The notes below the pieces were generated by a model, which made no database searches, was not told the origin of the DNA, and saw nothing but the letters and a program-made list of their open reading frames with translations. From the NCBI RefSeq assembly GCF_963921235.1, contig NC_086097.1, forward strand, positions 102,178,001-102,242,000: a stretch of DNA of 64,000 bases, written 5' to 3'. The stretch is from Mobula hypostoma (lineage: Eukaryota). Both the position numbers and the translations under genes were made by a program. Positions 2,738-61,273 of this stretch are shown here, piece after piece. Within the stretch, counting starts at the first letter, position 1. Each line of letters opens with the position of its first letter.

Positions 2738-3805
2738 TGAAAGCGATTGACAAAGCAGTCCCTCAATCTATGTCGAGTCTGACCATCTGTAGAGGAGGCC
2801 ACATTGGCAGCAATGGATACAGTAGACGGCTCCAACAGATTCACAGGTGAATGGATAGATGTAGCATTTCTGCCGCTTGTAGGGCAAGTGCCAGGAGGAA
2901 GATTAGGGACAAATGGACAAAGGAATCATGGAGGGAGCATTGCCTGCAGAACGCCTGGGGGGGGTGGTGAAGATGTAATTGGTGGTAGGGTCCCGTTGAA
3001 GATGGCGGAGAATAAGGTGTTGAATGCAGAGGTGCATGGGTGGTGGGTGAGAACAAGAGGAACACAATCCCTGTTAAGGCAGAGGGAAGATGTGGTGAGC
3101 ACGGATGCCCGGAAATGGAAGAGATGTGGGTGAGAGCAGCATCTATGGTGGAGGAAGGGAATCTCCATTCTTTGAAGGAGGAGGATATCTTTAATGTCCT
3201 GGAAAGGAAAGCTTCATCCAGGAAACAGATATGGCAGAGACAAAGGAACTGAGAAAAGGGAATAGCATTTTTACAGGAATCAGGGTGGAAAGAGATTGAG
3301 TCTAGATAGTTGTGGGAATCGGTAAGTTGATAAAATTTATCAATATACAGTTTGTGTCCAGAGATGGTGTTGGAGAGATGAAGAAACAGGACAGAGGTGT
3401 TAGAAATGGACCAAGTGAATTTAACGGCAGGGTGGAAGTTGATGAAATTGATGAGCTCAGTGTGGATGCAGGAAGCAGCTAGAGTTGTCAATGTAATGCA
3501 GAAAGAGCTGGGGAGCGTTACCAGAGAAGGTCTGGAAAATGAACTGTTGTACATAGCCAATGAAAAGGCAGGCGTACTAGGGTCTATGCGGGTGCCCATG
3601 GCCACACCTTGACTTTGGAGAAAGTGGAAGGAGCCAAAAGAGAAGTTGTTGAGTGTGAGGACCAGTTCCGCCAGACAGAGGAGGGGGTGGTGGAGGAAGA
3701 CTGGTCAGGACTATTGTCAGAAAGAAGTGGCGGGCTTTAAGGCCTTCTTGATGGGAGATAGAAGTGTATTCAACTGGACGTCCATGGTGAAAATGAGGTG
3801 ATCAA
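2738..3805 (-). mobile_element. Penelope-like element RT fragment
   Basis: MAMGTR, NFHPAVKFTWSIS and YQLTDSHNYLD..SFHP.SCKNAIPFSQFL; same family as 22776-24772. Confidence 0.9.
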
Positions 3806-3890
3806 GTTAAAGGCAAAGTAGGACGTAGAGATAACGCAGGAAGGAGAAAGGAAACAAAAACAGCAGGAGATGTGAACAGAAGGAACAAGA

Positions 3891-4054
3891 GGGGATATAC
3901 GAGAGACTGCAAACGCTGGAAACTGGACAACAATCAGCACGCTGGAGGAACTCAGCAGGATCTACAGGAGGAAGGGGATTGCTGACATTTCAGGTCTTGA
4001 TCCGAAACCTCCACAGATGCTACCTGACCTGCTGAGCTCCTCCAGCAGATTGCT
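3891..4054. mobile_element. Old Penelope-derived fold-back mini-insertion
   Basis: gctggaggaactcagcagg ... cctgctgagctcctccagc inverted arms; possible TSD gaacaaga at 3883-3890 and 4055-4062. Confidence 0.65.
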
Positions 4055-4247
4055 GAACAAGATAACTGGAGATAGATCAAATTGGAACTTAGGATCTCAT
4101 ACTATAAGTATACAGCACACATGCAAATTATTTTGACTGTAATCGATTACTCAAGATGAGAGGCTTTATTTTTCCTTCTTTTTAGAGGTGGAAGGTTTAA
4201 CATACACAATTACCGCTGAAGGGAAAAATAAAATCTATCAAACTTAC

Positions 4248-9315: not shown

Positions 9316-9985
9316 CTGAAAGCAAAGACAACATGTCTTCTCAGAGCTGACATTCTCACATTTACTAACGTCATGGGATGCTGATCTGCTCATCCATCAT
9401 TCAGAATATTTCCACCAGTTCCATGCCCCCACTTATTTCCCTACAAACACGTCTTTCAACTTTTTCCCTATCCCTGTCCACCTTCCTGATACTTGACAGC
9501 CTCAGAATAATTTGCAGTGCTCAACTTGCAAACTCCACACAAACAATATCTGAGCTCAGGATTGAACTTGAGTTGCTGCAGTTACTACTGGCCCTACTAG
9601 CTGTGCAGTTTAGAGCAAGGTTTGTACAGACTGATGCAGCACATGAGCACCCTGGAAATGTGTACTTAGCCCCCTGCTTTACGTGCTTTACACCTAAACT
9701 GTGTGGCTAAGTACAGCTCCAACACCATATACAAATTTGCTGATAGCATCACTGTTGTGGCAGTATCAAAGGTGGTGATGAATCAGAATACAACAGGGAG
9801 GTTGAAAACTTGGCTAGGTGATGTAATAACAACAACCTCTCACTCAATGTCAATAACACTAAGGAACAGACTGTAGACTTCAGAAGAGGAAAACCAGAGG
9901 TCCATCAGCCAGTAATCAATCATCAGAGTGTCAGAGGTGCAGAGGGTCAATCACTTTAAGTTCCTGGGTGTCACTATGTCAGAGA

Positions 9986-10174
9986 CACAAAATAATCTGC
10001 AGATGCTGGGGTCAAAGCAACACTCACAACACGCTGGAGGAACTCAGCAGGTGGGGCAGCATCCGTGGAAAAGATCGGTCGATGTTTCGGCCCCGAAGGG
10101 CTCCAGCCCGAAACGTCGACCGATCTTTTCCACAGATGCTGCCCGACCTGCTGATTTCCTCCAGCGTGTTGTGA
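9986..10174 (-). mobile_element. Penelope-derived fold-back mini-insertion with 18-bp TSD
   Basis: TSD gtgtcactatgtcagaga at 9968-9985 and 10175-10192. Inverted arms of about 70 bp are centred on the hammerhead remnant cgaagggctccagcccGAAACGTCgac. Confidence 0.9.
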
Positions 10175-10293
10175 GTGTCACTATGTCAGAGAACCTGTCC
10201 TGGGCCCATCATATAAATATAATTGCAAAGAAAGCACAACAACGCCTCTACTTCCTTAGGAGTCTGCAGAGGTTCAGCATGTCATCAAAAACC

Positions 10294-22709: not shown

Positions 22710-22775
22710 ACCACTGTTCTCCATAGCTCTTCATATTGACGAAACGAGTGAAGTCATTGGGCATCAACTATGAAC

Positions 22776-24772
22776 AAGAGAAAATTTTCAGATGCTGGAA
22801 ATACGAGCAAACACACACAAAATGCTGGAGGAACTCAGCAGGCCAGGCAGCATCTATGGAAAAGAGCACAGTCGATGTTTCGGGCCGAGACCCTTACGCA
22901 GGACTGGACAGAAAATGCTGAGTAGATTTAAAAGGTGAGAGAGACAACCTGGAGGGGGAGGGATGAAGTAAAGAGCTGGGCAGTTGATTGGTGAAAGACA
23001 CAGAAGACCATGGAAGAAAGAAAAAGAGGGGAGGAGCACCAGAGGAAGTCGATGGGCGGGCAAACTGATAAGTTGAGAGAGGAAAATGGGATGGGGAATA
23101 GAGAGAGAAAGCGGGTGTGGGGAGGCATTACCGGAAGTTTGAGAAATTAATGTTCATGTCATCAGGTGGCAGCTACCCAAATGGAATACAAGGTGTTGTT
23201 CCTCCAACCTGAGTGTGCCCTCATCACAACAGTGGAGAAGGCCATGGATGGACATATTGGAATGGGAATGGGAAATAGAATTAAAATGGGTGGTTACTGG
23301 GAGATCCCACTTTTTCTGGCGGGTGGAGCGTACATAATCGGTGAAGCAGTCTCTCAGTCTGCATCGGGTCTCACCGATATACAGGAGGCCACACTGGGAC
23401 AACAGAACACAGTAACTGACCACAACAGACTCACAGGTGAAGTGTCACCTCATCTGAAAGGGCTGCTTAGAGCCCTGAACGGTAGTGAGGGAGGTGTAGA
23501 GGCTGATGTAGCACTTGTTCCACTTGCAAGGATAAGTGCCAGGAGGGAGATCAATGGGGAGGGACGAGTGGACAAGGGAGTCACGTAGGGAGCAATCCCT
23601 GCGGAAAACAGAAAGTGCGGAGAGGGAAGATGTGCTTGGTGGTGGGATCCCGTGGAGAGGGTGGAAGCTTCAGAGAATTATTTGCTGGACGCGGAGGCTG
23701 GTGGGGTGGTAGGTGAGGGCAAGAGGAACCCTATCTCTAGTAGGGTGGTAGGAGGATGGGGTGAGGGCATACGTGCATGAAATGGAAGAGATGCAGTTGA
23801 GGGCAGCATTGATGGTACAGGAAGGGAAGACCCTTTATTTGTAAAAGGAGGGCATCTCCTTCATTCTAGAAGAAAAGCCTCATTCTGCGAGCAGGTGTGG
23901 TGGAGACAGAAGAGCTGAGAGAAGGGGATGGTGTTTTTACAAGTAACAGGGTGGGGAGAGGTATAGTCTAGGTAGCTGAGAGAGTCTGTGGATTTATAAT
24001 AGACATCAGTAGATAAGCTGTCTCCAGAGATAGAGACAGTGAGATCAAAAAAGGGCAGGGAGGTGTCAGAAATGGACCAGGTAAATTTGAGGGCAGGGTG
24101 GAAACTAGAGGAAAAGTGGATGACGAGCTCTACATGGTTGCAGGAAGCAGCTTCAATGCAGTCGTCGATGTGGTCGAGGAAAAGTGGGGGATGGACACTA
24201 GTGTAGGCTTGGAACATAGACTGTTCTACATAGCCAACGAACAGGCAGGCATAGCTAGGACCCATGTGAGTGCCCATGGCTAGATCTTTTGTTTGAAGGA
24301 AGTGGGAGGAGCCAAAGGAGAAATTATTTAGAGTGAGGACAAGTTCCACTAGGTGGAGGAGAGAGTTAGTGGAAGGGAACTTGTTAGGTCTGGTTCCAGA
24401 AAGAAACAGAGAGCTTTGAGGCCTTCCTGATGGGGGATGGAGGTGTATAGGGACTGGGCATCCATAGTGAAAATAAGATGATGGAGGCCAGGGAACTTAA
24501 AATCATTGAAAAGATCCAGAGCATGTGAAGTGTCACGGATGTAGGTGGGAAGGGACTGAACCAGGGGGATAAAACAGAGTCGAAGGGGCAGGAACAAGCT
24601 GAAACAATGGGTCTATCTGGACAAGTGGGTTTGTGGATCTTGGGCAGGAGGTAGAAACGGGAGGTATGGGGTGCAGGAACCATGAGGTTGGTGGCGGTGG
24701 ATGGGAGATCTCCAGAATCAATAACGTTGGTGATGGTGTGAGAGACAATGGCCTGGTGTTCTTTAGTGGGGT
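22776..24772 (-). mobile_element. Penelope-like retroelement (RT + GIY-YIG endonuclease + pLTR), degraded
   Basis: FYLLPKIHK, FTMDAQSLYTSIPHQEG and AMGTHMGPSYACLF; GIY-YIG CGLLYIGET.CRL; 3' pLTR with a hammerhead motif. Confidence 0.95.
22869..22906 (-). ncRNA. Decayed minimal type I hammerhead ribozyme in the Penelope pLTR
   Basis: CAGUC-CUGcguA-AGGGUCUCGGCCC-GAAAC-AUC-GACUG: stem I CAGUC/GACUG, stem II and GAAA are intact; the CUGANGA box is mutated. Confidence 0.7.
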
Positions 24773-27289
24773 TATGAACTAAGCACAGAGCTACAAAGAT
24801 AAAACAGAATTTTGGATACAACTGGATGGGTCAACTGCACAAAACAATGAGCCATTGCTAATGGTGTATGTACAGTTTATCAGAAATGGAAAACTTTACG
24901 AAGAGATTCTCTTTTGTAAGTTAAAAACAAGTATCAACAGAGAATCAATCTACAACAAGCTCAAAATGTTTATTGAGGATAAAAGTCTTCTGATTAGGAA
25001 CACGATTTCTCGTGCAACAGATGAAGCATCACATATGACAGGTCGCCATGCTGGTTTAGTGGCATTCATGAATAGAAAAATTCTAAGTCTGTTTGCAATC
25101 CATTGTGTCATTCATCAACATCTCACAGCCAAAAACCTCAGCCAGTAACTTTTTTCAACCATGACTCTTGTAGTATCTGCTATCAACAAAATTAAAGCTC
25201 ATCTATTAAACAGCAGAATATTTCACCAGTTACGCTAAAACAACAATGAAGAGTTTGAACACTTGCTTCTTCACACTGAAGTGCACTGGCTGTCAAAAGG
25301 CCGCTGCTTAAAATGTTTCTTTGATCTTTTTGACACTATGTTTGAATTTTTGCTCAAAGTCAACAAGAGCTTGGGAAACAAGACTGAACATCCACATGGA
25401 GGTGTGGCATATTAGCTGATCTGTATGACGTAATGAACATTCTAAATAAGAAACTGCAGGGTCAGAATTTCAATTTAATCCACGCAAAAAGTGCAGTGTC
25501 CATTTTTAGTAGAAAACTGGAAATGTATAAGCAAAACATTGGGAGAAGAATGTTCTCAGTTTCCCTACATGGAAAATATGGTACTTTCACAGACAGAGAT
25601 TTTCAAGAGTGCTGCTTACACCTGCAGTCACCGAAAAAGCATTTTCAGAAACGATTTAAGAATTTGAATGATCTGGAAATTCCAGACTCGGTAATTAACC
25701 CATTTCTTTGCAAGGTAGAAGAACAGGAAGAAAGCTTGCAAAAAAAAATATTAAAATTCAGAATGATGAAGAAGCAAAAATGCTTTTCTAAAATGTTGGG
25801 TTTTGTGGTATGTGGCTACACTGTCATACAAAGTTTGCTGGTTTTTGGAGAAGAGCCAAATTGCTCTTCATCGTATTTCCATCCTCCTACCTCGTTTAAA
25901 GAGGCTTCAGTACAGTGCACCACATACTCACAAAAACAGAAACTACTTGGACATTGTTACACGTGGGGACTTAAGGCTTTTGCTGTCACAACTTGAACCA
26001 GATGTTTCAACTCTTGCTAAAAACCAGTAAGCACAAGGATCACATTATATTGAAGCTGCTGTACAGTGCACAGGTACAGTGTAAGCTAGGTTTAATTTTC
26101 TCATGTTAGCATATGGTAGATATGTTTTTACACTATGAAAGTTTATTGTACCTAAGAGGGATGTTGGCATTTCTGAAGCTGCTTTAGGGGACATGAGATT
26201 AAAAACGTTAGGAAAACATTGGGCTAACCTAATCATATGGAGAGAAAACTAAACCCCTGGAAAATTTCAAATAACTTGACTAATTTCTCTCCCTTTCAAG
26301 CAGCAACTTCCAGGCCATCTCAGAGACCATTTTCCTTATCAACCTTCTCATCTTTCTTTAAACCTCTTCCCCTAGGTTCTGACCCCTGTTAAGGGAAACA
26401 GGCCCTTCCTCATAACCCTGTCTCAAGCCCTTAACAGCTTATACTCCCCTCCGTCTCATTCAGCCTTTCCTCATAACTACAATTCTCCTGACTTGGCAGT
26501 GCTGTCCTCTGCACCCTTTCCATTTAGTGATCAGAAATGCACATCACAAAGCTAACCAACACATCCTCTCAGGTTTTTATCATCTATGCGATCTGGGGGG
26601 GGGGGCCTCCTTTTCAACCATGCATTAAGCAGTCTTTCTCGCTTTGCAAATGTATGCTCCAAGGTTAACCTTTCCATTCATTGTGTATTCCTTGCCTTGT
26701 TGCATCTTCCCAAATGCAGTACTTTGTTTCAATTCCGTTTGCCACTCATGGTAGAGTCCACCTTCCTGCACCCTGAAGCTTGTTAGCTGCAAGTATCATC
26801 GCCACGCATCTTTATACTGTAAACGATTCGTATCAGTGAGCATGCGATGAGAGAGCAGCAGAGGCAACATTACAGAAAGGATGTGGCTTTTTCTAACACA
26901 GTTGATTTACATTGAAATGTATTAAGCCCCAAGGAACCCCAGCTGATATCCTTATAGTCAAGGGAAATCTTCTCTGTTTCTCTCTCTTGGATAGGCACGT
27001 GCGTGTGCACAGAATGAAGGAATATGGACGCTGAAGGGGTCAATTTAATTACATCTTTAAGTCACAGTTTAATGAGTTTGATACAACATTGTGGGCTGGA
27101 AGCCTGCTCCTGTGATGTTCTGTTCAAAGTTCTAAAAGACACAATCATTATCCTTTGCTTTCTATTCCTTGGCTGGTTTGTACCTCGCTTAACATTCTTT
27201 TGTACTTCTATACACCTTCCTTTTCCAACCAGCTTACGCGGGTCCTCATCAAATTTTTGCTGAAATCTACTCACACTACGTCACTGCCT

Positions 27290-31135: not shown

Positions 31136-31529
31136 TATAGCTTTGTATGTACAGGATATCCACGGGTTGTGCATTCATAACCTCAAGGGCCTGTACAAGT
31201 GATAAAGATCTGAAATGCAATGTCTGAATGAATGTTGGAACTCAGCACCAGCTTCCAACAGGACTTTGTTAAAATGCCTGAGCAGGGAAGAATAGTTACT
31301 TTGAAAAGCCATAAAAGGTACAATGGGCTTAATAGCCAACCTCCTCTCTATAATGGACATGGACATGCAATTTAAAGAAAAAATTCATCAGAATTTGTAC
31401 GTGGGGGCATGTTTGTGTCTCTACAATAAGTGCTTTATTTGAGTTTAGTTTGAGTTTGGGGTTTCAATGAGCTGGGGAGGCAACAGAGACTATTGTTTGT
31501 TGGTCTGTGTCACTGTTTACTGTTGTGCA

Positions 31530-31652
31530 CAGCAGGTCAAGCAGCATCTGTGGAGCAGAGAGACAGTTGATGTTTAGGCTCAAGACACTGCGTCACTGCC
31601 TTAATCTGCTGAGCTCCTCCAGTAAGTTGTATTTGCTCCATATTACAGCATC
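31530..31652. mobile_element. Old Penelope pLTR fold-back remnant
   Basis: agcaggtcaagcagcatctgtgg ... ctgctgagctcctccag...cagcatct. Confidence 0.55.
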
Positions 31653-32005
31653 TTCAGGCCCTTGTGCTTAGAGTCTCAGAGAAGTACAGCAGAAAACCAG
31701 GCCCTTCAGCTCCCCTAGTCCATGCTGGACCAAACTGTATAGTCATATCGACCATAGTCCTACCATTCACATACCTATCCAAACTTCTCTTAAATGTTGA
31801 AATCGAGCTGCATGCACCACTGGCAGCTCGTTCCACACTCTCACCCTCTAAGTGAAGCGTCCCCACATGGTCCCCTTAAACACTTCACCTTCCACCCTTA
31901 ATCCATAGCCCCTAGTTGTAGTCCCAACCAAACTCGGTGCAAAAAGCCTGCTTGCTTAGACCCCTCATAATTTTGTACATCTCCACCAAATCTCCCCTCG
32001 GTCTT

Positions 32006-32943: not shown

Positions 32944-33034
32944 GTCTTCTATGTTCCAAAGAATAAAGTCCCAAGCTATTCAATCTTCCTTATGACACAG
33001 GTACTTCAAACCCAGCCACATCCTTGTAAATTTT

Positions 33035-33222
33035 AAACACTAACAAGAGAAAATCTGCAGATGCTGGAAATCCAAGCAACACACTCAAAATGCTGGAAGA
33101 ACTCAGCAGGCCAGGCAGCATCTATGGAAAAGAGTACAGTCAATGTTTTGGCCCAAAACATTGACTGCATTCTTTTACTAGATGCTGCCTGGCCTGCGGA
33201 GTTCCTTCAGCATTTTGTGTGT
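33035..33222 (-). mobile_element. Penelope-derived fold-back mini-insertion with ~14-bp TSD
   Basis: TSD tccttgtaa(a)tttt on both sides; hairpin apex caatgttttgg|cccaaaacattg corresponds to hammerhead stem II/GAAAC. Confidence 0.85.
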
Positions 33223-33366
33223 TCCTTGTAATTTTCTGCTGTACTCTTTCAACCTTATTTACATCTTTCCTATAAGTAGGTAACCAAAACTGCACACACT
33301 ACTCTAAATTAGGCTTCAACAACACTTCATACAACTTCAACATAACATCTCATCTCCTGTACTGAA

Positions 33367-37769: not shown

Positions 37770-38590
37770 TGCATCAATGTCTTTACTTTCTTGGCAGCTT
37801 AAGGAGGTGAAGCTTGTCACAAAACACTAACAAGCTTCTTTCAATGTACTGTTAAAAGTATGCTGACTGCTTGCATCATGGGCTGGGATGGCAATTTGGA
37901 TGTGCAAAACTGCAGACGGTAATGGGCTCCGCCTTACACCTTGCGGACATACCCTTCCCCACCATCAGTAGGAACCTCATGAGGCACTCACAACATGCTG
38001 GAGTAACTCAGCAGGTCGGGCAGCATCCGTGGAAACGATCAGTCAACGTTTCGGGCCAGAACCCTTCCTCCTGTCGAAGGGTTCCAGCCCGAAACGTTGA
38101 CTGATCATTTCCACGGATGCTGCCCGAGCTGCTGAGTTCCTCCAGCGAGTTGTGAATGTTGCTTTGACCCCAGCATCTGTAAAGTATTTTGTGTTCGCAT
38201 GAGGCACTGCCCCAAGGAGGCAACATCCAAAGGCCCTCACTATCCACACCATGCCACTTTCTTGTAGCCCCCTCTGGGCAGGAAGAACAAACACAGATTT
38301 CCACAGCACTAGGTTCAGGGACAGCTACTGCCCTTCAACCATTTGGTTCTCCAACTAACAAGCACAAGCCTGATGACTGCAGTAGATCAATACTACAACC
38401 ACGAGGCAATCTGCACTAAAATAGATTTTGTTTTGTTTTATGTTGTTTCGTGTAAAATTGTGCATAATCTACGTTTAATTTAGGAATTTCTTGTGAATAC
38501 TGCCCGTAAGATACCATGTACCTGTGATGCACTGCAACTAAGATTCTCATTGCTCCTGTGGTTACATCTGACAATAAACACAGCTATGAC
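37770..38590 (+). mobile_element. Degraded Rex1/Babar 3' end
   Basis: Degenerate C-terminal motifs; tail tgacaataaac. Confidence 0.6.
37989..38197 (+). mobile_element. Penelope-derived fold-back mini-insertion with 11-bp TSD
   Basis: TSD catgaggcact (37978-37988, 38198-38208). Apex next to CTGtCGA-agggttccagccc-GAAAC-GTT-gactg (38071-38103). Confidence 0.9.
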
Positions 38591-39126
38591 TAGTCATCTT
38601 CTGCACAAGAGGACTGTTCCACTGAACACCACTTGGAAACTTCTGTGGTAGTTAAAGTACATGACATTGAGTAACTCCCATCCACCCCAATAAACGAGAG
38701 CAACCAAATTTTATCTCAGTTACCAAACTGTCTCAATAAGGCAACTGTAAACTAAAGCTCCAATCCAGATGGCTTAACATGTATTACAGATCAATGCGCT
38801 AAAGTAATGCTGAGGGTGCCAATTCCAGACGAGCATTTGAACTGAAGTCCTATCTTGCTGCCTCGAGGAGCCAAGAGTTCTTCCTTAGTATCCTGACCAG
38901 TAATTAACTCCAAAGTACCACCCCAAAACTATATTATTACTTGGTTTGCTGGCTGTTGAATAGTTAGCAATAACTGCACCGTGCAGCTCTCAGATTCTAA
39001 AATACAAGCACTTTCTACATAGGGCAAGAGGTGGGGGATGAGGAATCTTCCCAAAGTTTATAAAAGTAAGTCAATAGTGTTCATGTGCTGCAGAAGGTGA
39101 AAAAAATTGTAAAAGGCAAAACTGAC

Positions 39127-41031
39127 CTCAGTGGAGGAGTTCTGATCAGACAAGACTTGTTGTGGTTGGAGACCATTTGCTTCATTAGAAGTTCCTCCTC
39201 CCTTTCTTGCAGTTTGTATAACACTCTCTGTTGTCTCTTGAACCTCTGAAGAAGTCTCCTGAGCAGACTTTTGACTGCTTTGATTCACTTGGATTTTCTC
39301 ATGTCCTCTCTCCCTCCGGATGTCCTCATTTGTCTGAGTGTGTGCTTGAATGTTCTTGGGTTGAACTAAATCCACCCCAAACAGTTTGTGTTGGTTCTGT
39401 GCACCACGATTTGATGGCATGTTCAGCAATTTTTGGAGCTCTGGCCCATATGCTTGTGGCCAACGCTGGTTGGTGCTTTCTCTAGGGCTACATTCATTTC
39501 CCAGTCTGTGCAGCTCAAAAAGGCAGGGTTTCACTTTTCTTTCCTTGAGGGCACATCGGGTCTGCTTTGCTAAGGGTGTTTGAAACTCAGTCTCCATTTT
39601 GCGTAGCGGGTGTTCTTGCTTATGGCCACCTGTGGACCTCTGCATTCCTTTGATGATCTGCGCATCGGAAGGCTGTTGCAACTGAGATGGTGCTGAAACC
39701 ATCAGATGTGTGGGTGGATCTGGACCCTGGTTTGTCTGAATTCTGTGGAGACCGAGAGACTGGGGTGGCTGTTGGTGAGGGAAGAACTGCTGGAACAGGT
39801 GCTGCTGACATGCAGCTTGTGATGGACGGCTATAAACAGAAAGAAGTGACGGCTGGCGAGATTGATGGAATATATTTAATACTGAGTTTGGCGGCAAGTC
39901 CGGCTTCTGACACTGTCCATATGGAAACTGGAAGAATTGATGATGAATCAAAGTTTCATTACTTGTCTGTGGCTGCTGGAACTCCTGGTGATGCAACAGT
40001 TGAGTCTGCTGGTTTTGGGGTTGGGTCTGCTTGTATTGCCGTTGGTTCTGCTGGTGCTGATGCTGCAGTCTGATCTGTTGTTGGTGCTGATGCTGGAGCT
40101 GAGTCTGCTGGGATGGCAGCTGCATCTGGACATGTGCTTTGGTTGTTTGGTGTTGATGCTGCAGTTGATTGTTCTGCTGAGATTCATGTAGTAGCTGATT
40201 CTGGTGCTGCAACTGGTTCTGCTGGGACTGCTGCTGCAGTTGGGTCTGCTGGGACTGCTGCTGCAACTGGTTCTGCTGGGACTGCTGCTGCAACTGGTTC
40301 TGCTGGGACTGCTGCTGCAACTGGGTCTGCTGGGACTGCTGCTGCAGTTGGGTCTGCTGGGACAGGTGTTGGTGATGATGCTGAAATAGGTTCTGATGGA
40401 TTTGATGCAGTTGTGGTTTTGGTAGCTCAGTTAATAAGTGAATTGGTTGCTTGGCCAGCCTCTTTGCTAAGTGGGCTTTCTCGTCCATCTGTTTTATTGC
40501 ATCCGCAAATAAGCCCAGCTGGGATCCAGTGCCCTTGTTCTCCTGCTGACTTTGGAGAGATTCGTGCAACAAGTGGGTTGAGCTCCCTTGTTTAGCAAGA
40601 GTGTTTAGAAAGGGTCCTGGAGCACTGCTTGAAGCTCCACTACTGGGACAGAAAGGGACTGCACTTTGACTCCATGACACAGCATGGCCAGCTGGCTGCC
40701 AGTTCAGCCCACCCTTGGCAGGCAAGTGATCGACCAGAACGGAGGCTGTCCAGTTTGGTGGCACGGTGCCATCTTTGGTCACATTCTCCTGGTCCATTTC
40801 CACATTCACAGCAGCCACTGGATGGCAGTGCACACCGGTAATGGGGGCTGTGGGTTTGGGGGGTTGTTGTGGCTCGACCATACCCTCCGAGACCCTCACT
40901 TCCCCATGCAACATTCCGTTCCTTCTTTGCCGATTTGGGCTTGGTTGAGTTGCTCTGGTATTCTCAGTGAAAAATGAAATCTGCTTGCCTCTCCGCTTAG
41001 CTGAGCTTTTGCCCGGGGCCTGGGCACTCAT
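39127..41031 (-). CDS. MIDEAS: MIDEAS/ELMSAN1-like, first coding exon (635 codons, Q-rich low-complexity N-terminus)
   Basis: Open frame of about 2 kb. ATG at 41031 has A at -3 (the ORF-track start at 41097 is a GTG). MSAQAPGKSSAKRRGKQISF resembles MIDEAS MNLQAQPKAQNKRKRCLF, and SVIQTARKGGGTSNEANGL resembles GVIQSTRRRRRASQEANLL. Phase-0 donor GAG|GTCAGT at 39127/39126. Confidence 0.85.
40201..40362 (-). repeat. Coding tandem repeat, 6 x 27 bp encoding SQQ(T/N)QLQQQ
   Basis: Six consecutive 9-aa units are visible in both DNA and translation. Confidence 0.95.
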
Positions 41032-41288
41032 GCTTAGAGTGGCATTTATGGCAGTAATTGTGGGTAAGAGTATATTTTGTTTTTTTTTAAGATTCACTCC
41101 TCACCTCTTTCAGTTTTGAGATTGTTGTTCCTTGCAAGCTCAATGTCTCCAATTAAAAATACGGCATCCAAAAGCCAGCAGTGAATCATGAATGTCTGTC
41201 AGAGCTCCACCATACGAAACTAAGTTCCACAGGGGTAACTTTCACTGTCACTAGTCACTTGCAAAGACTCAGAGAGGAACTTGTCAAC
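41032..41288 (-). other. MIDEAS: 5' UTR part of the first coding exon (predicted acceptor at 41289-41290)
   Basis: Minus strand reads tttgacttttgttgttgttccAG|gttgacaag, a pyrimidine-rich tract plus AG 257 nt upstream of the ATG. Confidence 0.55.
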
Positions 41289-42759: not shown

Positions 42760-44980
42760 ACTATTCTTACCCCAACCCATTTTACTCTCCCCACATCTCC
42801 TTTAACTTCCCTTGAACCCCGACACTCACCAACATCCCAAAGGCCAATTAACTCAGCTACCTGCACACCTTTGAGATGCGAGAGGAAACCGGAACACTTA
42901 AGGGAAACCATGCAGCCACAGGGAGCACATACACTCACACAGACAGACACAGGGAGAACACACACACACACACACACACACACAGTCAGACAGACACAGG
43001 GAGAACACACACTCACACAGACAGATACAGGGTGAACACACACTCACACGAACAGACAGACACAGGAAGAACACACACTCACACAGACAGACACAGGGAG
43101 AACACGCTCACTCACACAGACAGACACAGGGAGAACACACACTCACGCAGACAGACACAGGGAGAACACACACTCACTCACACAGACAGACACAAGGAGA
43201 ACACACACTCACGCAGACAGACACAGGGAGAACACACTCACAGACACAGGGAGAACACACACTCACACAGACACAGAGTGAACACACACTCACAGGGAGA
43301 ACACACACTCACACAGACAGACACAGGGAGAACACACACTCACAGGGAGAACACACACTCACTCACACAGACAGACACAGGGAGAACACACACTCACTCA
43401 CACAGACAGACACAAGGAGAACACACACTCACACAGACAGACACAGGGAGAACACACACTCACGCAGACAGACAGACACAAGGAGAACACACACTCACGC
43501 AGACAGACACAGGGAGAACACACTCACAGACACAGGGAGAACACACACTCACAGGGAGAACACACACTCACTCACACAGACAGACACAGGGAGAACACAC
43601 ACTCACGCAGACAGACACAGGGAGAACACACACTCACGCAGACAGACAGACACAGGGAGAACACACACTCACTCACAAGACAGACAGGGAGAACACACAC
43701 TCACAGGGAGAACACACACTCACTCACACAGACAGACACAGGGAGAACACACACTCACACACAGACAGACACAGGGAGAACACACACTCACTCACACAGA
43801 CAGACACAAGGAGAACACACACTCACTCACACAGACACAGGGAGAACACACACTCACGCAGACACAGGGAGAACACACACTCACGCAGACAGACAGACAC
43901 AAGGAGAACACACACTCACGCAGACAGACAGACACAAGGAGAACACACACTCACGCAGACAGACACAAGGAGAACACACACTCACGCAGACACAGGGAGA
44001 ACACACACTCACTCACACAGACAGACACAAGGAGAACACACACTCACGCAACAGACACAGGGAGAACACACTCACTCACAGGGTGAACACACACTCACAC
44101 AGACAGACACAGAGTGAACACACACTCACACAGACACAGGGAGAACACACACTCACAGGGAGAACACACACTCACACAGACAGACACAGGGAGAACACAC
44201 ACTCACGCAGACAGACACAGGGAGAACACACACTCACGCAGACAGACACAGGGAGAACACACACTCACGCAGACAGACAGACACAGGGAGAACACACACT
44301 CACTCACAAGACAGACACGGAGAACACACACTCACAGGGAGAACACACACACACTCACACAGACACAAGGAGAACACACACTCACGCAACAGACACAGGG
44401 AGAACACACTCACAGACACAGGGAGAACACACACTCACGCAGACAGACAGACACGGAGAACACACACTCACACAGACACAGGGAGAACACACACTCACAG
44501 GGAGAACATACACTCACACAGACAGACACAGGGAGAACACACACTCACTCACACAGACAGACACAGGGAGAACACTCACTCACACAGACAGACACAGGGA
44601 GAACACACACTCACGCAGACAGACACAGGGAGAACACACACTCACTCACACAGACAGACACAAGGAGAACACACACTCACGCAGACAGACACAGGGAGAA
44701 CACACACTCACGCAGACAGACAGACACAAGGAGAACACACACTCACGCATACAGACACAAGGAGAACACACACTCACTCACACAGACAGACACAAGGAGA
44801 ACACACACTCACGCAACAGACACAGGGAGAACACACCCTCACGCAGACAGACAGACACGGAGAACACACACTCACACATACACACAGGGAGAACACACAC
44901 TCACACACACACACACACACAGGGAGAACATAGACTCACACAGACAGACAAGAACACAGTCACACAGACAGCCACAGGGG

Positions 44981-45022
<42 letters not shown>

Positions 45023-45471
45023 GGAGAACATATACACACTCACACAGGGAGAACACACACTCACAGACAGACACGGAGAACACAAAGTCACAGATACAGG
45101 GAGTACATACACTCACACAGAGACAGACACAGGGAGAACACACACTCACACAGATACAGGGAGAAAACACACCCACCCAGACACAGGGAGAACACACACT
45201 CACACAGACAGACACAGGGAGAACACACACTCACACAGACACAGGGAGAACACACACAGCCACAGGGGGAACACACACACACGGAGAACATACACACACA
45301 CACAGAGAACATACACACACACACAGACAGACACAGGGAGAACACACACACACACACACACACACAGACACAGGGAGAACATACACACACACACACAGAT
45401 AGCACTCAGGGTCAGGATCGAACCCAGGCTGCTGGAGCCATGTGGTAGCAAGCCTGCCTACTGCACCACCC
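42760..45471 (-). mobile_element. V-SINE (HE1-like) split by a minisatellite expansion
   Basis: A box ggtggtgcagtagg (45470-45457), B box GGTTCGATCC (45424-45415); the V-domain resumes (ccggtttcctctc) near 42890. Confidence 0.8.
42917..45400. repeat. ~2.5 kb compound minisatellite, unit ~acacagggagaacacacactcacacagacag (about 19-35 bp variants)
   Basis: Direct reading; almost no T on the + strand. Confidence 0.97.
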
Positions 45472-45764
45472 TTCCATCCTTTCTGGAAAATGACTGACAG
45501 GCAAATCCTGGGGGAAATACAGGCACTATCACACACTATGGAGTGATCCTCTTCAGCGGTACTTTTGCAAGATTTAAAAAGTCATAGTTTACTTTGGGCA
45601 AAAGACACCATCCAGTTTCAAACGATTCATGGACTTTATACTAATTCACTTGGCTGCATTAATGGTATTATTGTAGAAACATCCTGCCATGGCGCTCCAA
45701 CTCTCAGCCTACCATCACACTAGCAACAAAGCAAAATAAATGCACAATCTGTGAAACTGAGTAA

Positions 45765-45935
45765 GAACAGGGAATACCAGATATACTCAACAGTCAGAGA
45801 CCATCTCTGGCAACAGAGGCAGTCAATGTGTCAGGCCACATACCTCTAGGAAAGGTCAGCCTGGGGCATTAACTCAGTTTTCCTCTCTCCACAGATGCTG
45901 CCTGCCCTGATGAGTGTTTCCACCAGTTTCTTTTT
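45765..45935. mobile_element. Old Penelope pLTR fold-back remnant
   Basis: ctcaacagtcag...catctctgg versus ccacagatgctgcctgccctgatgagt. Confidence 0.45.
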
Positions 45936-47222: not shown

Positions 47223-48102
47223 TAATGTCCCACAGCTCCTCACAGGAAAACCAGCATACAAAGCTACACATCAATTCTTCCATCTGCCTGTGTGGTTTGT
47301 AATGAACCACTGCCTGAAAGGAGGGGGAAATGGAACAATTTAAGGAAGGAGTTACAGGCCTTCAACCTCAGATGAGGTGTATCAGCCAACGCCGAGGAAG
47401 ATGCACAAAAAGTTGAAAACGGGGAACATAAGCAATCTTAGTCATTACTAATACCTAAAAACTTTGTGAAGTATCAAGCATAAGGCTGTTATACTAAATA
47501 CCCTATTTGCCTCCATGGACAACCCATACATCAGTCCAAAATATCACAATGTAAAACATCCGTAGTTATTTGGACAATCAGTGTCCTTTATGCAGTCACA
47601 GTACACAGACAATATTCAAAGTAACCCTATTTGATTTGTCTTCCAAATTGATGGGTCAATAGGATAATGTGTTAGATTCAAGTCAGGAGTGAGGTGAAAT
47701 ACTCGCCACTTGCCTGGATGAGTGCAGCTTCAATAACACTCAGGCAACTCTGCACCATACAGGACACAGTAACCCACTCACCATCCAGTGCGTGTCATCA
47801 CTAAAACTCATTAGTCAGCCCTTTCTAAACCCATGACCTCTACCAGGTCTGGTTTCCTCCCACATTCCACAGACCTACGAGCTAGGCTTAGTAACTTGTG
47901 GGCATAATATGTCAGTGCAGGAAGCACGGTGTCACTTATGTGCTGCCCCAGAACATCCTCCACAGAAACGACATGCATTACTGTATGTTACGATGCACGT
48001 GACAAATAAGGCTAATCATTAAAAAAGGCGAGAGCAACAGCAGTATGGGAAGCAACACACACAGAATGCCAGAGGAACTCCGCAGGCAAGGCAGCATCTC
48101 AA

Positions 48103-48140
48103 CAGTCTACATTTCAAGCCAAAACCCTTCAGCAGGACTG
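48103..48140 (-). ncRNA. Decayed hammerhead motif in a Penelope pLTR fragment (~48050-48175)
   Basis: CAGUC-CUGcUGA-AGGGUUUUGGCUU-GAAAU-GUA-GACUG, the same 38-nt layout as 22869-22906. Confidence 0.65.
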
Positions 48141-48799
48141 GAGAAAAAAAAAAGATGAGTCGGAGTTAGAAGGTAGTATGGGAACATCACCACCAAGCCT
48201 CATGGCGCCCTACCTTGGAAATATATCACTGTTCCTTCACTGGAAGTCCTGGAACTCCCTCTCTAACAGCACTGTTGGTATACCCACAACAAGGACTGCA
48301 ACAATTCCAGACAGCTCACCAACACCTTAGGTCAGCTAAGGACGGGCAACTAAAAACCAGCTCAGACTGTGAAGCCAACATCCTTGAATGAATTTTAAAA
48401 AAATGCTGGGCTGCTAAGTTAAATGCAATTTCTGTTCTTTCTGTCATGTTATAGGAGAGGAGACTTCAGGAAAGTAGTACAGACATAATCTGGATCCTAA
48501 TGAGCATTCTCACAGCCATGTCCAAAACTCCGGCTTTGTGCCAACAAATCTAGCAGTTTTCCAACACTCCCAATGTTTCTAACACAGGCACCAATGCCAG
48601 TGGGAAAGCCTGTCCAAAGATCTCACATAATTACCTACCGCTTCAGACTTAAATTCAATATTTTCTTGCAGCCAGACACCCCTAGTTAGGAGAGCAAGAT
48701 CTTTTATTTTGCCACAATTTGCTTATACGGACTGAGTAGTTTGGACTATTGATTTGGAGAATGAATTCACAATCAGTACAACAGCCGGGGTATTAGTGT

Positions 48800-58822: not shown

Positions 58823-60290
58823 TTTGTATGTCTTGTACTTAACACCCTCGTCCAACAATCAATACTGTGAACAGCTAAGGTCCAAATCAGATCATTTTGT
58901 TGTTTTAAATCAAATAAATTAAATCTTCTGTATTTTTTTTTAAATCTTTCTCTAACAAAGTCATTCTTTTCCAGTGATATAAATGGAGACGATGGAAGTG
59001 CCATGTGGTCTTGTATGCTCATTTAGCCTCAAGTGGTAACTGCTTTTCTCCCCACAAATTCTGCCTGACCTGCTGTGTATTTCTGGCTATTATTGCAGCA
59101 CAGGTACATCAGGATATTCCCCCAGCCCATGTTCTGAGAAACTACAGGTCTTCACCAAAAGAACACTTTGACACCAGCCTATTTGCTGTGCAGAATATGG
59201 CATGTTTGACCAGGAGTCCCAAGCTCTTGCAAAGATACAGAACTAAACACTGGCAACTTTGTGTCAGCGTGGCAGGTCTTCAACTGAGACCCATGTAGGA
59301 CCTTGTAGTTAACCAACCAATCTATCAAATACAATTGTGGAATCACACTGGTTTTAGAACAGGAGAACATTCAATCTATTGTGTCCGTGCTAGCTCTCTA
59401 CCAGAGCATCTCAACAGATCCATCCCTAGGAGATGCAAGACGCTGATGCTGCAGTCGGGAGTTAACTGCTCAGAAACTCTGCTGGTCAAGCAGCATCTGT
59501 AGAGGCAAGATGACCAGTCTACAGGTGACACAGCTGCTGATAAGAGGCTGTAGTACACTGTCTCAAAATCCGCAGCACTTTCTCCATTACCTTGCTAAAG
59601 TTTTCCTCACCATTTATCTATCCAATTCCTCGCTGAAGGCCACAATGGATCCTGCCTCCACCTCATCAGCTGGTAATGTACAATGCAAAAAGGTTTATCT
59701 TTGTTACCATTTTTAAATTTTCTTCCCTTTTATTTCTGACCTCTAGAACTTGACACTAACAGTGGAAATAGCCTCACACCACCCACTCAATCCAGATTCA
59801 TTTTGTATACTTCCTTTAAATCTTTCTCTTCTCCAAGAAAAACAGTTGCAGACATCCTAATCTATCAAAGTAACTAATCTCTCATCTCAGGAACCATTCC
59901 CAAAAATATTTTCTGGACTCTCCTCAATACCTCCATATTATTCCTCACAAAGCTCCAGCTGAGGACTGAGTCATCTTTTACAAAGGTTCTCTACTTTTAT
60001 TCTCCATGACTCGACTGACAAAGCCCAGATTTCTAAGATTCATACAGCTGGGAATGAGGCCATTTAACCCATCGTGTTTACACTGGCCAGTAGGTACCCT
60101 TCCAAATTAATCCCATCTTCCAGTGCTGAGTAACGTATGGATCTATTTCTTTTAGAGCAATGACCTGGCCCCCCCCCCCAGCACTACGCATTGATCTTTT
60201 GACTACGCATGTGCATGGTTCTCCCTCTCACTCGTGAATACAGCAGTTAAAGCCATTTCCCATGTACGTGCCTTATTTAATCGATATGTA

Positions 60291-60497
60291 ACATACATCA
60301 AAGTTGCTGGTGAACGCAGCAGGCCAGGCAGCATCTATAGGAAGAGGCGCAGTCGACGTTTCAGGCCGAGAAGAGTCTCGGCCTGAAACGTCGACTGCGC
60401 CTCTTCCTACAGATGCTGCCTGGCCTGCTGCGTTCACCAGCAACTTTGATGTGTGTTGCTTGAATTTCCAGCATCTGCAGAATTCCTGTTGTTTGCG
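60291..60497 (+). mobile_element. Very young Penelope-derived fold-back mini-insertion inside the Gypsy LTR
   Basis: 15-bp perfect TSD tttaatcgatatgta (60276-60290, 60498-60512); ~82-bp arms with 2 mismatches around a 4-nt loop (60372-60375); 40-nt unpaired tail. Confidence 0.95.
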
Positions 60498-60850
60498 TTT
60501 AATCGATATGTAGTTCTGCACAGAAACAACAAATTGGTGACAAGTATGAACCTGTATGTCAGAGAACATCACCAACTGCACTGACGGTTACGAGACTAAA
60601 CAGTGAGAGTTAAACAACACATGAAAGCCGTCACAGACGCTAACAAAGGCGTGAGTACAGCATAGTACACAGGGAAAGATGCACTGAATTTAAAGTGAAA
60701 ATAAGGCGGTGATGGCTTCACTCAGGAAAGCTGATAAATTGGGTGGTGTTAATGAAGGCTGGGAGTCATATCGAGAGGGTGGAACCGTATAAACATTTAA
60801 CACGAACAATGTGGAGGAGCAAATGAAAGCTCCTGCACAGCTTAGTTTAA

Positions 60851-61273
60851 TGGTGCACGAACATACAGTCTCTTGCACAACTGAGTAACCTCACAAATGG
60901 TGCGCGAACATACAGTCTCTTGCACAACTGAGTAACCTCACAAATGGTGCGCGAACATACAGTCTCTTGCACAACTGAGTAACCTCACAAATGGTGCGCG
61001 AACATACAGTCTCTTGCACAACTGAGTAACCTCACAAATGGTGCGCGAACATACAGTCTCTTGCACAACTGAGTAACCTCACAAATGGTGCGCGAACATA
61101 CAGTCTCTTGCACAACTGAGTAACCTCACAAATGGTGCGCGAACATACAGTCTCTTGCACAACTGAGTAACCTCACAAATGGTGCGCGAACATACAGTCT
61201 CTTGCACAACTGAGTAACCTCACAAATGGTGCGCGAACATACAGTCTCTTACACAACTTAGTAACCTCACAAA
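60851..61273 (+). repeat. Tandem repeat, 9 x 47 bp, inside Gypsy gag
   Basis: Unit tggtgcgcgaacatacagtctcttgcacaactgagtaacctcacaaa, head-to-tail, no spacers. Confidence 0.97.

Follow-up and report, generated by a model that had tools for sequence, protein, structure and literature searches.

Penelope-like elements (PLEs) are known for insertions in which an inverted partial pLTR is combined with a one-sided tail and a target-site duplication (TSD) (PMC3846280, PMC8557442, PMC8969392), and an earlier note on the DNA studied here rightly named the inverted partial pLTR among their known features. The minimal hammerhead ribozymes (HHRs) published for these elements carry one additional base following A9, and their helix III is reduced to a palindromic remnant; in Schistosoma pairs of HHRs occur on opposite strands 100-700 bp apart (PMC4209133). 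For a PLE of the anole, the purified protein cuts and extends both strands, and two internal start sites bound the tail (PMC11167929). This protein is predicted to dimerise, works on uncleaved RNA and helps its own HHR; mutation of the HHR leaves insertion in vitro unaltered, and no RNA-seq reads were found to end at the cut site (PMC11167929). What happens during PLE integration once priming has taken place, and what the minimal HHR is for, are called open questions in this literature (PMC11167929, PMC8557442). Here we describe short palindromic PLE insertions in a 64-kb stretch of Mobula DNA, hereafter the window, and the positions at which their arms are joined.

The parent element and its hammerhead motif

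The PLE from which the insertions derive lies at 22773..24782 on the minus strand, is 5'-truncated and frameshifted, lacks an inverted arm, and consists of a reverse transcriptase (RT), a Zn-finger-like linker, a GIY-YIG endonuclease, a 3' UTR, an HHR and a tail. RT motifs, the Cys-rich linker and the GIY-YIG region are readable in its translation, and 72 protein relatives were found at E<=1e-10, with ray and shark gene models as the closest RT relatives (59-73% identity among the top ten matches). Relatives with RVT_1 and GIY-YIG aligned collinearly by tblastn through the RT and the endonuclease, down to 23172, and a protein atlas placed pieces of the element in eukaryotic clusters where RVT_1 (in 11-42% of members) and HTH_animal occur. 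An RT followed by a C-terminal GIY-YIG endonuclease is the arrangement of EN+ elements. A direct Pfam scan and a PDB search did not recognise the decayed pieces, and a peptide encoded by the pLTR or tail had no significant match to any of the 72 relatives. The CX2-5CxxC linker that marks Neptune and Nematis (PMC8557442) is present before the endonuclease in a fragment at 3040, decayed in the main element and found in 9 of 13 relatives checked. On the sequence of this linker, which Nematis also has, the parent is assigned as a Neptune-type PLE. The family is extremely abundant in related genomes, where, in two DNA runs, 182,918 and 163,328 contigs align to 600 bp of the element.

A 38-nt minimal type I hammerhead motif occupies 22869..22906 (minus strand) in a copy that is mutated in its core, and we take the cut to fall between 22874 and 22873, following the usual hammerhead numbering. 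Positions are given hereafter relative to this predicted cut, with +1 as the first base past it, which places the motif at -33 to +5. The motif folds with five pairs in helix I and four in helix II (-10.5 kcal/mol, z -1.39). The family displays the features of a minimal HHR, namely the core boxes, helix I, helix II, the extra base after A9 and a palindromic 15.2-16.2, and among contigs from related runs the commonest variants have the core sequence that is lost from the 22773 copy. No HHR copy in the window is free of mutation or truncation; only two retain both strands of helix I, and these are identical there. An Rfam scan gave no hammerhead match, returning only generic hairpin matches below the gathering score.

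Two signals that resemble splice acceptors lie close to the motif. A pyrimidine tract that ends in YAG and is followed by ATG occupies 22854-22868 (minus strand) and the matching parts of the arms, ~18-20 nt downstream of the cut, and is found in all three sequence groups described below despite their differing tracts; it looks like a 3' splice site. The HHR core, ~45 nt upstream of this signal, opens with a pentamer that we take to be branch-point-like. The second signal, at 48135-48170 and at 22904-22935 (minus strand), comprises a branch-like motif, a T-rich tract and an AG, ends in helix I at -31, and corresponds in position to the end of the Penelope intron of D. virilis (PMC4209133).

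Palindromic insertions in the window

An unbiased scan of the window for inverted repeats returned six pairs, and the four best are the arms of four hairpin insertions: 60290-60371/60376-60457 (98%), 37985-38067/38076-38158 (90%), 10013-10090/10108-10185 (91%) and 33081-33124/33179-33222 (91%). The remaining two pairs (76%) are not PLE sequence. Each insertion is 188-209 bp long and consists of a TSD of 11-18 bp, a tail-less inverted arm, a direct arm, a tail of 38-46 nt and the second TSD, so that the shared design attributed to these copies in the earlier note is upheld. All four thus combine an inverted truncated copy, a tail on one side only and a TSD, as in defined PLE insertions with an inverted pLTR, with tails that compare with 30-40 bp in that definition, and all four have two fixed start points. 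By BLASTN the arms align with the end of the element at 22773-22906 (73-90%), which bears out their proposed origin from the 3' end of a Penelope element.

The copy under study is enclosed by TSDs at 60276..60290 (15 bp, its final base also assignable to the arm) and 60498..60512. Between them lie the tail-less inverted arm at 60291..60371 (minus strand, ~+63 to -15/-17), the direct arm at 60370..60457 (plus strand, starting at -21/-23), which has 2-nt microhomology with the inverted arm, and the tail at 60458..60497 (plus strand). This copy folds as a single hairpin that leaves the 40-nt tail unpaired (-176 kcal/mol, z -26). The others, with their TSDs, occupy 37978..38208 (insertion 37989-38197, plus strand), 33021..33235 (33035-33222, minus strand, with a near-perfect apex at ~-8 to -13) and 9968..10192 (9986-10174, minus strand, within an older repeat). 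The TSDs are exact over 18 bp (9968/10175), 11 bp (37978/38198) and 15 bp (60276/60498), and extend over 13 bp with one mismatch at 33021/33223; exact repeats of at least 11 bp occurred anywhere in an equal scan area at 14 of 400 random positions. A paralogous repeat at 55643-55426 matches the flanks of the 9986 copy with exactly 207 nt missing between them, the sum of a 189-nt insert and the 18-bp TSD, which confirmed the paralogue as its empty site. In three copies the TSD matches the element by 1-4 bases at the tail-less end.

The four hairpins fall into three sequence groups, one of which is shared by 9986 and 37989 (88-90% alike), and within three of the four the arms are 9-12% apart. For the 60291 copy we used BLAST identities (82-83%), as MAFFT values were lowered by local misalignment.

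A profile search of the window recovered the four clear hairpins together with three older copies that also have two arms, and it found copies with one arm at 22773, 48022, 59023, 59472, 16215 and, weakly, 1149; the reversed window gave nothing better than E=3.6. The older copies comprise a palindrome at 3883..4062 (copy 3891-4054, minus strand, apex by eye at ~-11 to -17), a second at 45750..45935 (apex by eye at ~-22) and an asymmetric copy at 31520..31660 (plus strand), whose tail-less arm reaches ~-29 and whose tail arm starts at ~+28, outside the motif. The 3891-4054 copy has a candidate TSD of 8 bp, a length of at least 8 bp being reached at 45 of 400 random positions, and no TSD was found for the copies at 31530 and 45765. 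The single-arm copy at 48022..48174 (minus strand) is not inverted, spans the whole HHR and reaches ~-63. No PLE palindrome with longer arms was present among 18 inverted pairs within 8 kb in the window.

The window also holds an older PLE fragment at 2750-3860 (minus strand, 70% identical to the main element), which has no 3' end of its own and lies immediately next to the old 3891-4054 hairpin. A 47-bp tandem array at 60849-61273 (9 copies, 99% matched) lies 340 bp from the 60291 copy, a CA-rich minisatellite of 2.5 kb at 42913-45399 is the source of long spurious ORFs, and an open frame of 680 codons at 39058-41100 contains 21-, 27- and 54-bp repeats and has no Pfam match. Loci returned by pattern scans of viral (6), metagenome (12) and prokaryote (9) collections were rejected as chance, because the match of all 27 to the arm profile extended little past the seed, with 19 bits as the best score; viral contigs also gave no match in another motif scan or in a protein scan.

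Junction positions within the hammerhead motif

Tail-less arms begin between +58 and +63, whereas the tails end near +100. The starts of the two arms are therefore ~40 nt apart, yet their ends fall within one template interval. At 60291 the tail arm ends at -21..-23 and the tail-less arm at -15..-17, and at 37989 the corresponding positions are -28..-30 and -24..-26, each junction with 2-nt microhomology. At 33035 the tail arm ends at -8..-10 and the tail-less arm at -11..-13, with a 2-nt overlap at present and an apex that is one base short of a perfect palindrome and sits on a self-complementary 4-mer. At 9986 the ends are -10..-13 and -24, without clear microhomology. In three copies the tail-less arm exceeds the tail arm in length, namely 9986 (by 11-14 nt), 33035 (by 1-5 nt) and the old 31530 copy. 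All eight arm ends of the clear hairpins lie inside the 38-nt motif, ~8-30 nt upstream of the predicted cut, and no arm contains the whole motif, which agrees with the earlier claim that the hairpin turns within the HHR and leaves it incomplete. The extension of this claim to the older copies stood at 3891 and 45765 and failed at 31530, where the tail arm starts ~28 nt downstream of the cut, so that six of seven palindromes conform. Because all eight arms hold the predicted cut site together with ~8-30 bases upstream of it, the template was uncleaved.

The four junctions differ from one another, even within the group formed by 9986 and 37989, and two further sequence groups are represented; the diversity of subfamilies and junctions that had been reported for these copies was thus recovered, and four separate events are indicated. 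Based on the comparison proposed in the earlier note, in which identical junctions would mark a propagating family and varied ones new formation, the four hairpins in the window look to have been made de novo. Both arms at 33035 carry three CpG-type changes, one of which affects a conserved G of the core (probability by chance ~1e-4 to 2e-3), and this points to either a single template, which would then already have had a degraded HHR and still gave the same apex, or a later correction of one arm by the other. Past these shared apex changes, 4 of the 12 bases that follow are unlike between the 33035 arms (33135-33165).

The statistics on junction position draw on four clear copies (seven with the old ones) in one 64-kb window, and the HHR was chosen as landmark after the data had been seen. 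Mean arm lengths, taken as maximal extents, are 75.5-92 nt. Compared with a shifted exponential, the spread of the four apices is too small (p=0.002 at a detection offset of 30 nt; p=0.0005-0.008 over offsets 0-50), as is that of all seven (5e-6 to 0.0015; the positions of the three old copies were judged by eye). For all four to fall within the 38-nt motif, the best-case exponential probability is 0.004-0.09. A flat model in which arm length was confined to 25-100 nt gave p=0.066 for four of four and 0.067 for at least six of seven; under it the probability that all four lie in -10..-30 is 0.006, for a narrower interval picked after the fact. The comparison with random truncation that the earlier note had called for is thus divided, since in the window the observed clustering beats memoryless truncation (p ~0.002, n=4) but not a model in which long palindromes are lost (p ~0.07).

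The supply of microhomology was also compared along the element. Its density in the HHR bin is average (rank 25 of 50 element bins), and inverted microhomology of at least 2 nt has a density of 0.077 there, compared with 0.031-0.049 in five bins from -72 to -261 (~1.6-2.5x). The bin at +6..+43 equals the HHR bin in microhomology, yet holds none of the eight clear arm ends and one old one. Because of this bin, microhomology supply alone is insufficient to account for the cluster, and composition thus aids the clustering on the upstream side only. Taken together, these results are suggestive of a positional bias of the junctions toward the HHR (n=4-7).

Contigs of four runs were aligned to the element, and 2 of the 15 joints listed (663 in total) change strand; neither corresponds to an apex. 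Contig depth follows similarity to the reference copy, and the frequent break points at 22860-22866 and 22895 are positions where that copy differs from the majority, for which reasons we drew no junction statistics from the contigs. At 22773/22810 an opposite-strand joint brings the tail end together with the tail-less start; the four runs have 6, 4, 1 and 1 contigs with this joint, a hint that related genomes contain two-armed units arranged tail to tail or in tandem at other sites.

Possible routes of formation and comparison with known systems

From the layout and junction positions observed in the copies, we infer a mode of priming and a cause of the stop. Our preference, held tentatively and at a little short of even confidence, is for priming from two ends on an RNA that had not been cleaved, followed by stalling within the 5' half of the HHR and by end-to-end joining of the two cDNAs. 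Each hairpin would then be a one-off PLE integration product that was dead on arrival. A staggered break of the target left the TSDs of 11-18 bp, and of the two arms one begins distally, at the tail end (~+100), and the other proximally, at +58 to +63. The endonuclease would nick both target strands, and each 3' end would prime reverse transcription at one of two internal start sites. Both cDNAs would pass the predicted cut and tend to stall ~8-30 nt beyond it, the likeliest cause being a protein-bound or paired structure of the ribonucleoprotein (RNP) rather than cutting. Their 3' ends would be joined head to head through 0-2 nt of microhomology and then filled in, and the poorly self-complementary stretch just upstream may further reduce joints there. 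The single-arm copy at 48022 and the long element at 22773 both pass the HHR, which, like the CpG-type changes shared by the 33035 arms, speaks against a simple account based on the ribozyme. The HHR fold is of moderate stability, matched by 24 of 193 windows, and the equally stable stretch at +19..+58 was passed in every copy, so that folding energy alone would be a weak roadblock.

The same de novo origin might have produced the cluster without any role for the HHR, an account to which we give an appreciable chance, well below that of stalling. Short products would dominate, long perfect palindromes, which are unstable, would be deleted or missed, and the pyrimidine-rich UTR upstream would offer little microhomology. 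The p value of ~0.07 under the capped flat model and the lower density of inverted microhomology at -72 to -261 are in its favor, together with the unchanged in vitro insertion by anole HHR mutants (PMC11167929) and the inverted copies that Naiad PLEs, which lack an HHR, also make (PMC8557442). Arm ends are nevertheless scarce at +6..+43 despite equal microhomology, and the probability of 0.006 for -10..-30 also speaks against this account, within the limits of an interval chosen afterwards. If the bias reflects length and survival only, the hairpins are ordinary repeat debris. A fixed RNA boundary near -30, as a transcription start or a splice acceptor in stem I, could likewise limit the cDNAs, with ends trimmed by 0-20 nt; no arm of the seven palindromes extends beyond -30, both copies that retain the region have a polypyrimidine tract and AG at -33..-31, and it is at the 5' end of helix I that the intron of D. 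virilis Penelope terminates (PMC4209133). We think this quite improbable, as upstream-exon sequence is present at no apex, the copies at 48022 and 22773 pass -30, and no splice was seen among the 15 of 663 contig joints listed. The suggestion in the earlier note that the RNA end made by self-cleavage sets the stop has proximity to the cut site in its favor and is contradicted by all eight arms, which, given the predicted scissile bond, hold the ~8-30 nt that a cleaved 3' product lacks; in the anole study, too, no RNA-seq reads were found to end at the cut site (PMC11167929), and we assign this suggestion almost no probability.

That note had also proposed that reverse transcription stops and folds back, in which case a single cDNA primed at the tail would stop in the HHR, prime itself, copy back to the tail boundary and join the target. 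The 60291 copy fits this scheme with a 2-nt stem, a 4-nt loop and the longer tail arm, the two arms of one copy share private states, and self-priming has been proposed for junction palindromes of PLEs (PMC3846280). The scheme needs the tail arm to reach furthest, however, and therefore fails at 9986, 33035 and the old 31530 copy; a third clear copy, 37989, would need a 2-nt loop, and priming in stem I or stem II would be expected to yield junctions other than the four observed. Simple fold-back is thus doubtful, and we regard it as unlikely overall. The joining of two cDNAs is favored over it because the tail-less arm reaches further in two of the four copies. The apices of palindromes can be deleted later, and such deletions could be the source of the arm asymmetry. 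A propagating, non-autonomous family of retrozyme-like palindromes could account for the similar size and layout of all copies, non-autonomous PLE derivatives exist (bioRxiv 10.64898/2026.07.22.740005, PMC8557442), and the joint of tail end to tail-less start, present in two DNA runs (6 and 4 contigs), is compatible with it. Its probability is nonetheless very low, since the arms are incomplete HHRs locked in a hairpin of -176 kcal/mol, all four junctions differ, both copies of one sequence group included, and the window contains no tandem array of the hairpin unit. The common internal junction of a MITE- or SINE-like family is likewise absent from the window, and the retrozyme-like alternative raised in the earlier note finds no tandem units, complete HHRs or common junction.

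Returning to the two-ended priming that we favor, an additional and rather improbable reading is that the HHR acts as an assembly site rather than mainly as a cutter, its palindromic helix III remnant pairing RNAs or pLTR copies in a dimeric RNP. Two RTs moving from opposite target strands would then meet just beyond the RNA contact, where the cDNA ends would be joined. A homodimer-energy scan did not single out the helix III palindrome and therefore gave this reading no support. Were it true, PLEs would have a cleavage-independent HHR function and the head-to-head inverted pLTR of the whole class would be explained. Short two-armed insertions of such abundance could supply many cDNA end points, which bear on fold-back versus two-ended priming and on the HHR as a roadblock.

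In L1 twin priming both target strands act as primers, and the inversion is joined through short microhomology within one TSD, as here. The inverted and direct parts of an L1 inversion cover different stretches of the RNA, whereas the arms of the hairpins overlap almost wholly on the template, and we therefore rejected an L1-type product. Non-LTR retrozymes resemble the hairpins in being short, non-coding and derived from a PLE pLTR with HHR sequence, and differ from them as head-to-tail tandem units with complete HHRs, the hairpins being single head-to-head units with incomplete ones (bioRxiv 10.64898/2026.07.22.740005). Retrozymes have at least two tandem units with complete HHRs, and the hairpin unit appeared in 0 of 28 tandem-repeat rows in the window.

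Like the minimal HHRs of metazoan PLEs, the motif has the core boxes, the extra base after A9, a G-C closing pair, a short helix I and the palindromic helix III remnant; unlike them, the hairpin motifs are shortened at the 5' side so that neither arm is complete, and helix II has only four pairs (PMC4209133). The Poseidon PLE of Anolis carolinensis (PAc) shares with the hairpins two internal RT starts that bound the tail, extension of both strands, an HHR a little upstream of the start sites and the use of uncleaved RNA (PMC11167929). It belongs to a different clade, as judged by the Neptune-type linker of the Mobula element, and its proximal start region is an AC-rich loop, compared with a UG-rich sense strand here (22806-22820) (PMC11167929). 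A literature search, which took in few subscription journals and few older Penelope papers, found no published mapping of PLE inversion junctions onto the HHR. The insertions are most like the inverted-pLTR insertions of endonuclease-bearing PLEs such as Pen2a_Av, which have a head-to-head inverted 5'-truncated copy, a one-sided tail of 30-40 bp, a TSD and a small overlap or palindrome at the junction (PMC3846280, PMC8557442). In contrast to the arms of 181-218 bp in Adineta, the hairpin arms measure ~70-90 nt, no ORF follows them, and their junctions cluster in the HHR. Taken together, the hairpins are the shortest form of the known PLE insertion pattern, with a modest, suggestive positional bias in addition.
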